IMG/VR virus record: IMGVR_UViG_2778261181_000004
Strand: one strand, 5' to 3'
Origin: a virus
Lineage: Duplodnaviria; Heunggongvirae; Uroviricota; Caudoviricetes
DNA: 34,379 nucleotides
This document shows positions 19,155 through 23,783 of the stretch, in pieces; position 1 is the stretch's first letter; every line of letters starts with the position of its first letter. A program made the translations under genes and the position numbers. Under the pieces are notes generated by a model that was not told where the DNA came from, did no database searches, and saw only the letters and a list, made by a program, of their open reading frames with translations.

Positions 19155-19618
19155 GCAGAGTCGCCGCGATTATTTATGCTCTGGTTATCTGCATCATCGT
19201 CTGCCTGTCGTGGGCGGTCAATCATTATCGTGATAACGCCATCGCCTATAAAGAACAGCGTGATAAAAAAGTCAGTGAGCTGAAGCAGGCGACCGCCACC
19301 ATTACTGACATGCAGCAGCGCCAGCGTGCTGCTGATGCACTCGATGCTAAATACACGAAGGAGTTAGCTGATGCGAAAGCTAAAAATGATGCTCTTCGGC
19401 GCAAGCTTGATAATGGTGGTCGGGTGTTCGTCAAAGGAAAATGCCCTGTGCCATCCTCAGCCGAAACCTCCAGCGCCTCCGGTATGGGCAATGATGCCAC
19501 CGTCGAACTCTCTCCAGTTGCTGGACGAAACGTTCTCGGTATCCGGGACGGAATCATCAGAGACCAGACAGCACTGAGAACGCTTCAGGAATATATCAGG
19601 ACGCAATGCCTTCGATGA
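19151..19618 (+). CDS. Rz: i-spanin Rz
   Basis: GTG 19151 gives [34 protein letters not shown], near-identical in pattern to the lambda Rz N-terminus; overlaps the endolysin stop. Confidence 0.85.
19371..19577 (+). CDS. Rz1: o-spanin Rz1, embedded in the +1 frame of Rz
   Basis: [21 protein letters not shown] with lipobox VVGC and proline-rich mature region, as in lambda Rz1. Confidence 0.8.
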
Positions 19619-19836
19619 TAGAGATAATTTTACTCATCATCCTTCACATCTGGTTCTGTAGACAGGGTGGTGATCACTTCTGGAGTGAATCCAGATTAAA
19701 CATCTCATTGCTGATGCTTAAAGTTGAGCATTTGGCGCGCGGTAAGGGGCTGCGTTTAGATAAGAGCCAGTCATCACAAACACCAGGATTTAGCCTCGCA
19801 TTCGCGGGGCTTTTTATTGCAACAAAGGTAAAGACG

Positions 19837-20124
19837 ATGGATGAAGAATATCGTAAAGACCTGCAACTGTGGTTTGGTCTTACGCATGCGTCGTTCTGCG
19901 TGATGCCGCGAGTATTCATGGAGGCTATGCCTCCAGAATGGCAAGAGAAGATGGCTCAGTTGCTTTTTGAGTATAGCGACACGATCAAAACGGATGTCTG
20001 CGGAGTTCACAGCTGTTTTGTTACTGCCAAAGACGGCAACAACCGCTTTATGAGGATGCCAGAAGATATTCTGAACTATCGTCATCCTCGACGTGAATTC
20101 ATCGAATCATTTCTGAAGAAGTAG
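19837..20124 (+). CDS. Hypothetical protein (95 aa) between the spanin genes and cos
   Basis: ATG 19837 preceded by AAAGG; the ORF-track N-terminal extension from 19606 looks non-coding. Confidence 0.35.
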   Translation: MDEEYRKDLQLWFGLTHASFCVMPRVFMEAMPPEWQEKMAQLLFEYSDTIKTDVCGVHSCFVTAKDGNNRFMRMPEDILNYRHPRREFIESFLKK

Positions 20125-20948
20125 CCATTACAAAGCCTATCTACGGGTGGGTTTGATAATGGCTTATACCCTGCACGGGATAACTTAACTGATATCCCTT
20201 TTAACGGATAAACGGAGCCAACAATGGCAGAGAATGTCGGCATTATGGCAGTGAAATTTGGATAAATCGGGGATTAGAAAGATAGAGGCGAGCCGGTCAG
20301 GTAGAAATGAATCAGGCTCAAAGTGAAGCGGAAAAGGTCTGTGGCACAAACTGATGCTGCCATAATTACAGCCTGATGACTTGTGGAATGAAACATGTTG
20401 AACCTCCTTAATTGATGTGATTCGAGTGAGGAAGGCATTCTGTCCTTCTATAGTGTCCAGTAAATCAAACAGGAAGCTTGTCTCACGTGTGAGACAAGCC
20501 TCTCCCATCAGTGAGTTGTATTGATCTCGACTCTTCAAAGAATTCATTACTGGGTAGATGAAAATAGTTTCACGATGAATGGAGGAGGCTATGTTGGTGG
20601 CTTCTTCATTGGAGTACATATGCCCCCACGAACCCCAAAAACCTGCCGTGTTCGCGGCTACCGCAATACCACCACAGATCCGTCAGGCTATTGCAAAAGC
20701 CACAAAAGCGAAGGCTGGAAGCAATACAAGCCGGGCCAGTCCTGTCATCAGCGCGGTTATGGTTCGCGGGGTTGTCCCTCATGCTCGCCAGTCCTGTGCG
20801 GGGGTGGAAGAAACAGGACACTCACACAGATTCTTGTGGGTCGATGCTATTCCTTTCTGGATTATCCCGATGCCATTCATGCAAGGGCTGTATAAGACGT
20901 TCGTCATGGCTGTCAGGCTGACGGGTCCTCCCGGTGGGGTGGCCTGCC

Positions 20949-20968
20949 ACGGGGCGGGAGCGTCGCGG
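20949..20968. other. Candidate cosN (cohesive end site)
   Basis: ACG-GGGCGGGAGCGT-CGCGG resembles the lambda cosN neighbourhood ACG-GGGCGGCGACCT-CGCGG as I recall it; 12-mer at 20952-20963; lies 196 bp upstream of the terminase small-subunit start, close to the lambda cosN-to-Nu1 spacing. Confidence 0.5.
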
Positions 20969-21147
20969 AAAAAGGCTAGTTTTTGCATTTCCATGGCGGC
21001 GGCAGCATGTTTGGTAATTTATTGATAGTTAAAAGTTATTTCTCTTTTCACCTGTACAATATTTTTTTCTCCCTGTCATTAGACCAGTTTGCAATTAATT
21101 GAAATATATAAATAAACCTGATTTTCACCTGCCAGATGGAGTTGCTT

Positions 21148-21675
21148 ATGTCAAATGTGAGCGGGATCGGTGATGCTTATTACTGGAGTGTTTTTAAAAT
21201 CGCCGAGGCCTTTGGGCTTCACCGGGACACAGTAAAAAAACGGCTCCTCGCGGCCAACACTCCTGTGGCTGCGACTGTCAGGGGGAACCCCGTTTACGCC
21301 CTGCAGCATGTCGGGCCCGCCCTGTTTAGTGTGAAGCATGAGGCAGCAGACTCTGTTCATGATCCATCCCGTATGGAGCCGAAAGAGAGAAAGGACTGGT
21401 ACCAGTCTGAAAATGAAAGGATCAAGCTGGAAAAGGAGCAGCGAAAACTCATCCCAGTTGATGAAGTAGTCATCGTCTATTCGTCCATGAGAAAGGCTGT
21501 CGTCCAGGTTCTGGAGACAATTCCGGATGTTCTTGAACGCGATTGCGCCCTGACTCCTCAGGCCGTCGGCGTTGTACAGCAGGCCATTGATGACCTGCGA
21601 TACACTCTTCAGGAAAAATCCTACGAGGCTTGTGCTGCTGAATTAATTCCTGATGAGGAAGGAGAGAGTCTCTAG
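21148..21675 (+). CDS. Terminase small subunit (Nu1-like)
   Basis: ATG 21148 with GGAG 7 nt upstream; N-terminal HTH-like region; directly precedes the large subunit. Confidence 0.75.
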   Translation: MSNVSGIGDAYYWSVFKIAEAFGLHRDTVKKRLLAANTPVAATVRGNPVYALQHVGPALFSVKHEAADSVHDPSRMEPKERKDWYQSENERIKLEKEQRKLIPVDEVVIVYSSMRKAVVQVLETIPDVLERDCALTPQAVGVVQQAIDDLRYTLQEKSYEACAAELIPDEEGESL

Positions 21676-21683
21676 GAGGAATA

Positions 21684-23783
21684 ATGGGTTTTTCATCAGC
21701 CCGAAATTTGGGAAGGGACATATCGGCAGGATTTTCCCCACCACGTCGCATGCCGATTTCGGAGGCTGTTAAAAAATTCATGCGTGTTCCCAAGGGGGCT
21801 GGTAACTCGGTGCCATGGGATCCTGAACTGACACCCTACATCATTGAGCCCATGAACTGCCTGGCATCGCGTGAATACGATGCGGTGATTTTTGTTGGTC
21901 CTGCGCGAACAGGGAAGACCATTGGTCTGATCGATGGATGGATTGTCTATACCATCGTTTGCGATCCTTCGGACATGCTCGTTGTGCAGATGACCGAAGA
22001 TAAGGCCCGCGAGCATTCTAAAAAGCGCCTCGACAGAACGTTCAGAAGCAGTGCGGCGGTAAAGAAAAGAATGAGTCCACGTCGTAACGACAATAATGTC
22101 CATGATAAGACGTTCAGGGATGGCTCGTTCCTTAAAATTGGTTGGCCCTCGGTCAACATTATGTCGTCGTCGGATTACCGGTTTGTCGCCTTAACCGATT
22201 ACGACCGTTTTCCGGAGAATATCGATAGCGAGGGTGATGGTTTCTCCCTGGCCTCAAAACGTACCACCACATTTATGTCCGCCGGGATGACTCTGGTGGA
22301 GAGCTCGCCGGGACGTGACATCTGCGACAGCAAATGGCGACGTAAGTCGCCTCATGAAGCGCCACCGACGACTGGTATTCTTTCCCTTTACAATCGTGGT
22401 GACCGCCGCCGCTGGTACTGGCCATGTCCGCACTGCGGTGAATATTTTCAGCCAGCCATGGATACCATGACCGGCTACCGTAATGAACCGGATCCCTTTA
22501 AAGCCAGTGAGGCGGCGTATCTACTTTGCCCGCACTGCAGCGGCATTATCACTGCGGAGAAAAAGCGTGAGCTCAATAGTGCAGGAGTCTGGTTGCGTGA
22601 AGGTCAGGTCATTGATCGTAACGGCAACGTTTCCGGTGAACCGCGCCGCTCCCGTATCGCCAGTTTCTGGATGGAAGGGCCAGCTGCTGCGTATCAGACC
22701 TGGGCGCAACTGGTTTACAAATTACTGACTGCAGAACAGGAGTATGAAGCGACAGGAAGCGAAGAAACACTCAGGGCGGTTATCAATACCGACTGGGGAT
22801 TACCTTATCTTCCCCGCGCCAGCATGGAGCAACGAAAAAGTGAACTGCTTGAGCAGCGGGCAGAGCCAGTTCCTTCCCGCAGTGTGCCGGATGGCGTTAA
22901 TTTCCTTGTGGCGACAGTGGATGTGCAGGCGGGACGTCATCGCCGTTTTGTGGTTCAGGTAACGGGCTATGGCAGCCGTGGCGAACGCTGGATTATTGAT
23001 CGTTACAACATCACGCAGTCATTGCGCGGTGACAGCGACGGGGAGAGCCAGCGAATTGATCCGGCCAGCTATCCGGAAGACTGGGATGTCCTGCTGACGG
23101 ATGTTTTTCATAAAAGCTGGCCGCTGGCCTCCGATCCTTCTCAACAAATGCGACTGATGGCAATGGCGGTGGACTCCGGCGGTGAAGACGGGGTCACTGA
23201 TAATGCCTATAAATTCTGGCGTCGTTGCCGTCGTGATGGCCTTGGTAAACGTATTTACCTGTTTAAGGGCGACAGCATCCGGCGCGCAAAACTGATCACC
23301 CGTACATTCCCTGATAACACCGGACGAACGGGCCGACGGGCGCAGGCCGCAGGTGATGTACCGCTCTGGCTTCTTCAGACGGATGACCTGAAAGACCGGG
23401 TGAATAACGCGTTATGGCGTGACTCGCCAGGTCCCGGCTATGTGCATTTCCCTGACTGGCTGGGGAGCTGGTTTTACGACGAACTGACGTATGAAGAGCG
23501 GAGCAGTGACGGGAAATGGAGTAAGCCGGGTCGCGGTGCCAACGAAGCTTTTGACCTGATGGTGTATGCCGAGGCTCTGGTCATTCTGCATGGATACGAA
23601 AAGATCCGCTGGCCGGATGCACCGGAGTGGGCGAGCCGGGAAACCTGGCTGGAGTGTGTCCAGGACAGTACCGAACCGTCATCCTCACCGGAACCGGTAT
23701 CCACGCCTGTTAAAAAACAAAAACGGAAGAAAACAGTAACTGACGATGTTAACCCCTGGCTGACTTCCGGAGGATGGTTATGA
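21684..23783 (+). CDS. Terminase large subunit (lambda gpA family)
   Basis: 699 aa; Walker A-like GPARTGKT; AGGAGG RBS; size and position as lambda A. Confidence 0.85.
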   Translation: MGFSSARNLGRDISAGFSPPRRMPISEAVKKFMRVPKGAGNSVPWDPELTPYIIEPMNCLASREYDAVIFVGPARTGKTIGLIDGWIVYTIVCDPSDMLVVQMTEDKAREHSKKRLDRTFRSSAAVKKRMSPRRNDNNVHDKTFRDGSFLKIGWPSVNIMSSSDYRFVALTDYDRFPENIDSEGDGFSLASKRTTTFMSAGMTLVESSPGRDICDSKWRRKSPHEAPPTTGILSLYNRGDRRRWYWPCPHCGEYFQPAMDTMTGYRNEPDPFKASEAAYLLCPHCSGIITAEKKRELNSAGVWLREGQVIDRNGNVSGEPRRSRIASFWMEGPAAAYQTWAQLVYKLLTAEQEYEATGSEETLRAVINTDWGLPYLPRASMEQRKSELLEQRAEPVPSRSVPDGVNFLVATVDVQAGRHRRFVVQVTGYGSRGERWIIDRYNITQSLRGDSDGESQRIDPASYPEDWDVLLTDVFHKSWPLASDPSQQMRLMAMAVDSGGEDGVTDNAYKFWRRCRRDGLGKRIYLFKGDSIRRAKLITRTFPDNTGRTGRRAQAAGDVPLWLLQTDDLKDRVNNALWRDSPGPGYVHFPDWLGSWFYDELTYEERSSDGKWSKPGRGANEAFDLMVYAEALVILHGYEKIRWPDAPEWASRETWLECVQDSTEPSSSPEPVSTPVKKQKRKKTVTDDVNPWLTSGGWL

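Follow-up and report, generated by a model that had tools for sequence, protein, structure and literature searches.

HK97 gp74 is the functional archetype of the cos-associated zinc-ribbon HNH endonucleases (ZR-HNH). As the literature on HK97 gp74 and on lambda terminase has it, terminases of the HK97 type need an HNH protein for the cleavage of cos whereas lambda gpA does not; the gpA terminase possesses a nuclease domain of its own and cuts cos without an HNH partner, which is established lambda biology. The closest kin of the sequence described here are two cos-associated zinc-ribbon HNH proteins of HK97-like phages, SfIV gp54 and SfV orf53. The intact SfIV protein has 116 residues, of which residues 66–112 make up the Pfam HNH domain PF01844, and it neighbours a terminase composed of a Terminase_4 small subunit and a TerL_ATPase/TerL_nuclease large subunit. 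ZR-HNH nicking enzymes were described as 'Group 1' by Xu & Gupta 2012 (PMC3592412). According to the same work, the N-terminal zinc ribbon is of the type CxxxxC...CxxH, and the cos-associated HNH genes adjoin cos and the terminase genes (PMC3592412).

The window, i.e. the whole stretch of 34,379 nucleotides of tailed-phage DNA analysed here (IMG/VR record IMGVR_UViG_2778261181_000004), carries a piece of such a gene. Positions 20620–20769, on the plus strand, are very probably a defunct piece of an HNH endonuclease gene, of the cos-associated zinc-ribbon-plus-HNH type that occupies the right genome end in HK97-like phages such as SfIV and SfV. The original prediction, made from the letters alone, had proposed a remnant of a terminase-associated HNH gene that keeps only the N-terminal zinc-binding part, and this core reading is correct. 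In tblastn, residues 1–50 of the SfIV HNH protein align with 20620–20769 at 84% identity (E = 6e-28), and a profile HMM of 56 intact homologues aligns through its positions 1–50 only (E = 2.8e-21), so that the resemblance is far above chance. PHROG 144, 'HNH endonuclease', likewise matches residues 1–49 of the open reading frame (E = 3.5e-08). The frame-aware search that had been proposed together with the prediction does find HNH similarity, in codons 1–50 of about 116 in the SfIV protein. Within this part, three of the four zinc-ribbon ligands are left (Cys9, Cys25 and His28) and the fourth, Cys14, is replaced by a tyrosine; the four-ligand CxxxxC...CxxH ribbon of a functional ZR-HNH protein is thus no longer there. 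Like SfIV gp54, the fragment is positioned directly 5′ of cos, and the window shares with SfIV the non-coding DNA upstream of the gene and the ribosome-binding site. It differs from SfIV gp54 in the loss of the zinc ligand and in having no HNH catalytic domain.

The remnant makes up the 5′ part of a 91-residue ORF that runs from an ATG at 20620–20622 to a TAA at 20893–20895 and is preceded by a ribosome-binding site, GGAG, at 20611–20614. The peptide quoted in the original prediction, MPPRTPKTCRVRGYRNTTTDPSGYCKSH, is present in the frame that was given for it, and the end of the ORF at 20895 was also placed properly. The start is a different matter: 20614 had been taken as the ATG, whereas it is an in-frame GTA two codons 5′ of the true start. 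Upstream, 20400–20619 (plus strand) is a non-coding stretch from an SfIV/SfV-type (HK97-like) phage, which holds the GGAG and a palindrome described further below. Downstream of the remnant, the ORF has a tail of 41 codons and the TAA (20770–20895, plus strand) from non-HNH DNA, with no homology to HNH proteins. The ORF ends just 5′ of cos, as had been stated, with its stop codon 57 nt before position 20952, which corresponds to the first base of the cdtI and Tritos phage records.

A junction between two kinds of phage DNA is demonstrated by the alignments inside this ORF. With megablast against phage genomes, positions 20400–20766 match the right end of SfIV at 86.4% identity, as well as related SfV/SfI-type phages, and in these phages the matching region includes an annotated HNH endonuclease. 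Positions 20752–20991 match mEp460, PhiR40_1 and similar phages at 94–97% identity. The two sets of matches overlap at the 15 nt 20752–20766, CGCGGTTATGGTTCG, a stretch common to the HNH gene, in which it encodes QRGYGS, and to the mEp460-type DNA upstream of cos. Past this stretch, the window follows the mEp460-type DNA while SfIV carries on with the HNH gene. The segment from 20767 to 20951 is therefore of the mEp460/cdtI type that precedes cos in lambda-like prophages, and from 20952 onward the window runs parallel to cdtI and Tritos, starting at base 1 of their records; identity is 98–99% across the first 199 bases and 99.3% across 4 kb.

The position of cos can be fixed by comparison with lambda, in which the order of the sub-sites is cosQ-cosN-cosB. 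Two blocks are colinear with lambda: ACGGGTCC.T.CCGGTG at 20921–20936 with lambda 48471–48487, and ACG followed by GGGCGG...CGCGG at 20949–20968 with the cohesive-end region of lambda, aligned as joined ends. Each block alone is weak (E = 0.26), and the spacing between them is 28 nt in the window versus 29 nt in lambda. From the colinear order of the blocks and from the first base of the cdtI and Tritos records, the cosN cohesive end, GGGCGGGAGCGT, can be assigned to 20952–20963. It differs from the lambda cohesive end, GGGCGGCGACCT, only at bp 7, 8, 9 and 11, and has the same flanks as in lambda, ACG and CGCGG. A cohesive end of 12 nt with the conserved left half GGGCGG, flanking CG dinucleotides and coincidence with the end of virion genomes make this a lambda-like cos. 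On its 5′ side, GGGTCCT at 20923–20929 is identical to lambda bp 48473–48479 near the lambda right end, with matching spacing, and is a candidate cosQ, which Wieczorek & Feiss 2001 reportedly placed at these lambda bases. It has been reported that cosQ is a highly conserved element of 7 bp within lambda bp 48446–48502 (PMC4669245 and a further paper), and that variation of the cohesive end among lambda-like phages is confined to bp 7–12 (PMC4669245); the cohesive end of the window agrees with this pattern of bp 7–12 being free to vary.

The terminase genes that follow are of the lambda gpA type rather than the HK97 type. The small subunit, encoded at 21136–21675 (plus strand), belongs to the DUF1441 family (Pfam PF07278, E = 1.7e-44; PHROG 141, 'terminase small subunit'), and the large subunit at 21684–23783 (plus strand) is a lambda gpA-type protein with its own endonuclease domain (Pfam GpA_ATPase, E = 3.4e-81; GpA_nuclease, E = 3e-86). 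A gpA-type large subunit downstream of cos is shared with lambda, in which, however, the small subunit is Nu1 and not DUF1441. The remnant thus has the location of a functional ZR-HNH gene, beside cos and 5′ of the terminase genes that start at 21136, but not the HK97-type terminase partner, since DUF1441 and GpA_ATPase/GpA_nuclease occupy the place that Terminase_4 and the HK97-type TerL have in SfIV.

The same arrangement recurs in Escherichia coli. Of 5426 complete E. coli genomes, 38 cover at least 80% of a 161-bp query that spans the junction (IAI39 with 100% identity), and the intact HNH gene is covered to at least 80% in 1055 genomes. Some part of the junction query is matched in 1855 E. 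coli genomes, and matches that begin at 20752 and do not include the HNH 5′ part recur throughout among the matches listed. In six loci inspected, the junction is identical base for base, and in all six the same 150 bp is annotated in RefSeq as a partial pseudogene, called 'HNH endonuclease' in five and 'DUF8602 domain-containing protein' in one, with the remark 'incomplete; partial in the middle of a contig; missing C-terminus'. These PGAP pseudogenes, e.g. ECIAI39_RS24845 of E. coli IAI39, AABE75_RS09760 and KIM92_RS05605, have the same junction and the same place between the lysis genes and the DUF1441/gpA genes, and over the 431-bp remnant region they are 97–100% identical to the window, with nothing material different; the surrounding lysis modules and the DUF1441 alleles vary among the carriers. 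A decayed gene would be hard to reconcile with related phages that keep this frame as an intact, conserved small protein; the ORF is found only in near-identical prophages. As far as annotation goes, the feature is already known; it is real and ordinary.

Several other readings of the locus can be weighed against these data. In the original prediction, fragments of the HNH core had been suspected in another frame that would cross cos, which amounts to a full HNH gene decayed in place, with its catalytic core slipped into that frame. Other forward frames are indeed open at the locus, at 20579–21025 and 20691–20921. However, SfIV residues 51–116 have no significant match in any frame by tblastn at a permissive E-value (best near the locus, E = 15), an HMM of the C-terminal part of the 56 homologues, run on the entire 34-kb window in six-frame fragments, finds nothing (its best score, E = 2, falls at unrelated places), and the Pfam HNH domain is absent from all three overlapping forward-frame ORFs. 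The DNA past 20766, moreover, has the 94–97% identity to mEp460-type phages given above, and the full HNH profile has no match in mEp460, nor in HannyBb or in the right-end DNA of lambda. As residues 51–116 and the C-terminal HMM are unmatched in all frames, the gene is truncated and not frameshifted, and decay in place is extremely improbable. The suggestion of a decayed HNH gene is borne out for the remnant of the N-terminal zinc-binding part, but not for a frameshift in place, the 3′ two-thirds of the gene being absent. With them the HNH catalytic domain with His-Asn-His and [CxxC]2 that characterizes functional phage HNH endonucleases (PF01844/PF14279) is missing, and partial homology with an essential domain absent is what defines a pseudogene. 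It might also be argued that the frame-3 ORF at 20691–20921 is the real gene, akin to mEp460 gp59 and phrog_17397, and that the HNH-like frame is incidental, given that an 82-residue hypothetical protein is annotated over the homologous DNA of mEp460 and that phrog_17397 is matched with E = 4.4e-10. That match spans 20 residues only; mEp460 and the window differ by an indel, which changes the frame of the annotated hypothetical ORF and puts the remainder in a different one; the segment holds cos sub-sites; and most E. coli genomes among the matches listed have no RefSeq annotation on this DNA. A frame-3 gene is accordingly very improbable. As for a chimeric join or an indel arising from sequencing or assembly of a single record, for which only the abruptness of the junction speaks, the junction recurs in 38 complete E. 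coli genomes that were obtained independently (in IAI39 all 161 bp are identical), and six loci agree on it base for base, so that such an artefact is practically inconceivable.

A further alternative to a dead fragment is a small zinc-ribbon protein, consisting of a DUF8602-like domain and a new tail, that functions for instance as a DNA binder near cos or as a decoy against HK97-type phages. The ribosome-binding site, the ATG and the 91-codon frame are intact, late transcription runs through the fragment, an identical peptide is encoded by four of six relatives, and zinc-ribbon proteins next to phage HNH genes have been described (PMC3592412). A peptide could, judging from these features, be made from the 91-codon frame. 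The signs of decay argue the other way. The window has A8T, C14Y and R42C, each at a position at least 95% conserved in the 56 intact homologues, and Cys14 is one of the four N-terminal zinc-ribbon ligands. One relative with the remnant (L007) retains Cys14, which indicates that C14Y came after the truncation. Between copies of the remnant there are 5 non-synonymous versus 3 synonymous codon differences, albeit small numbers, whereas intact genes compared with SfIV are mostly biased towards synonymous changes (synonymous to non-synonymous 11:4, 17:6 and 23:6, with one exception of 10:10 in L015). The TAA of the window is TCA in two relatives, in which the frame crosses the cos cut site and encodes 119 residues rather than 91. 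Substitutions at conserved sites, the inconstant length of the ORF and the 5:3 ratio, small as these numbers are, all indicate the relaxed constraint of a pseudogene, which is also the RefSeq label. The exact 91-residue peptide is absent from a collection of 15 billion proteins, in which exact look-up found neither its TTG-start version nor a 144-residue ORF on the minus strand; the miss of the TTG-start version may stem only from the first residue. A functional small protein is thus very unlikely, and the dead fragment of an HNH gene remains the preferred reading. As far as sequence can tell, the fragment most likely does nothing.

To see how strictly the HNH gene goes with one kind of terminase, one genome per species was scanned for relatives of the SfIV HNH protein and the terminase downstream of each of the resulting 61 loci was typed. 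Both SfIV-type terminase genes lie directly downstream in 49 loci, and one of the two in a further 3. Neither terminase type was detected in 8 loci; in four of these the contig breaks off no more than ~700 bp from the HNH gene. The one locus with DUF1441 and gpA is from Morganella psychrotolerans (L062). Its HNH ORF (4001–4339) is broken at about residue 101 and ends in ...NLQSLRWCDWVKLTGS and a stop codon, while an intact copy in the same genome (L047), which lies beside an HK97-type terminase, reads ...NLQSLCWPCHYRKTATERT and a stop codon. It follows from the comparison of the two ends that L062 lacks the final zinc and catalytic motif: CWPCH is replaced by RWCDWVKLTGS and a stop, ~900 bp 5′ of the DUF1441 and gpA genes. 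The Morganella locus provides a second instance, independent of the window, in which a broken HNH gene lies beside a gpA-type terminase. Near-full-length HNH genes in the loci sampled stand beside HK97-type terminases, and both gpA-type cases are broken. The Morganella case fits the published placement of HNH genes beside cos and terminase genes (PMC3592412).

How the present arrangement arose may be imagined from the two kinds of DNA that meet at the junction, and it is in this way that we infer the direction and mechanism of the event. Two phage arms would have been joined by recombination at the 15-nt stretch 20752–20766, one of them the lysis-to-HNH part of an HK97-like phage (SfIV/SfV-like) and the other the packaging module of a lambda-like (mEp460/cdtI-type) phage, comprising the DNA upstream of cos, cosN, DUF1441 and gpA. 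The recombination would have taken away the HNH codons from 51 onward, and hence the whole catalytic domain. With the start codon and ribosome-binding site surviving, the frame runs 41 codons into unrelated DNA that contains the cos sub-sites, until a chance TAA, and it is this reading on into unrelated DNA that makes the locus look like a small Cys-rich ORF. If gpA cuts cos alone in this phage as well, the loss of the HNH protein would carry no cost, and the fragment would be left to drift.

The 15-nt overlap itself could be explained in two ways: it could be a one-off microhomology join, or all that is left of an HNH gene once carried by the ancestor of all mEp460-type segments. The mEp460-type DNA has 14 of the 15 junction bases (CGCGTTTATGGTTCG), and SfIV and mEp460 agree at 13 of 15. 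By a rough estimate, a match as good as 13/15 between a 350-bp gene and a 200-bp target has a chance of ~6%. Apart from the failure of the full HNH profile on mEp460, a local alignment in search of an HNH trace 5′ of the junction in mEp460 scores below the mean of shuffled sequences; therefore, nothing beyond the 15 nt points to an older HNH remnant there. That all mEp460-type cos-upstream segments descend from an HNH-bearing ancestor, with the 15 nt as the last trace, is unlikely but still conceivable. That the 91-residue zinc-ribbon peptide is produced and has taken on a function appears, from what the sequence offers, less likely than this. If the common HNH ancestry were true, a widespread lambda-like packaging module would once have been grafted onto the arm of an HK97-like, HNH-bearing phage, and the window would be the least-eroded intermediate.

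Some further features were observed upstream of and around the remnant. A perfect palindrome, GCTTGTCTCAC-gt-GTGAGACAAGC, is located at 20476–20499, 120 nt 5′ of the remnant ATG, and the corresponding scan hit, 20502..20473 on the minus strand, was scored as terminator-like. SfIV has a different palindrome at the same place (GTCCAACG/CGTTGGAC), with two compensatory pair changes. Across genera, a hairpin at a similar distance is present in only ~8 of ~60 HNH loci, its sequence not being conserved, and Rfam at the gathering threshold has no match in the whole window. The 144-residue minus-strand ORF mentioned above (20185–20619), which abuts the remnant ATG and contains the palindrome, is probably spurious; it has no Pfam or PHROG match and is unannotated in the RefSeq relatives. 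Between Rz and the remnant, a 172-residue ORF (19606–20124) looks chimeric, its residues 1–50 corresponding to all of the 50-residue phrog_11822 and its residues 33–172 to positions 99–230 of the 233-residue phrog_3527; RefSeq relatives have in this region a partial Rz pseudogene and a 95-residue hypothetical protein. The whole interval from Rz to cos seems to be a pile of gene fragments. Three E. coli relatives possess a second, shorter HNH 5′ fragment (L004, 2660–2783; L005, 2374–2497; L006, 2660–2783), which matches HMM positions 1–21 (E = 1e-4) with 89% DNA identity and lies 287 bp 5′ of the 50-codon remnant, implying repeated recombination at the site; the window has a single copy of the HNH fragment.

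For annotation, the 91-residue ORF is not to be called protein-coding, and ORFs that run across 20952 are to be disregarded. The fragment matters little in itself. It lends modest support to the known coupling of cos-associated HNH endonucleases with HK97-type terminases, and it provides a clean example of lambdoid mosaicism, in which a module boundary falls inside a gene at a 15-nt shared stretch and leaves an annotated pseudogene behind.
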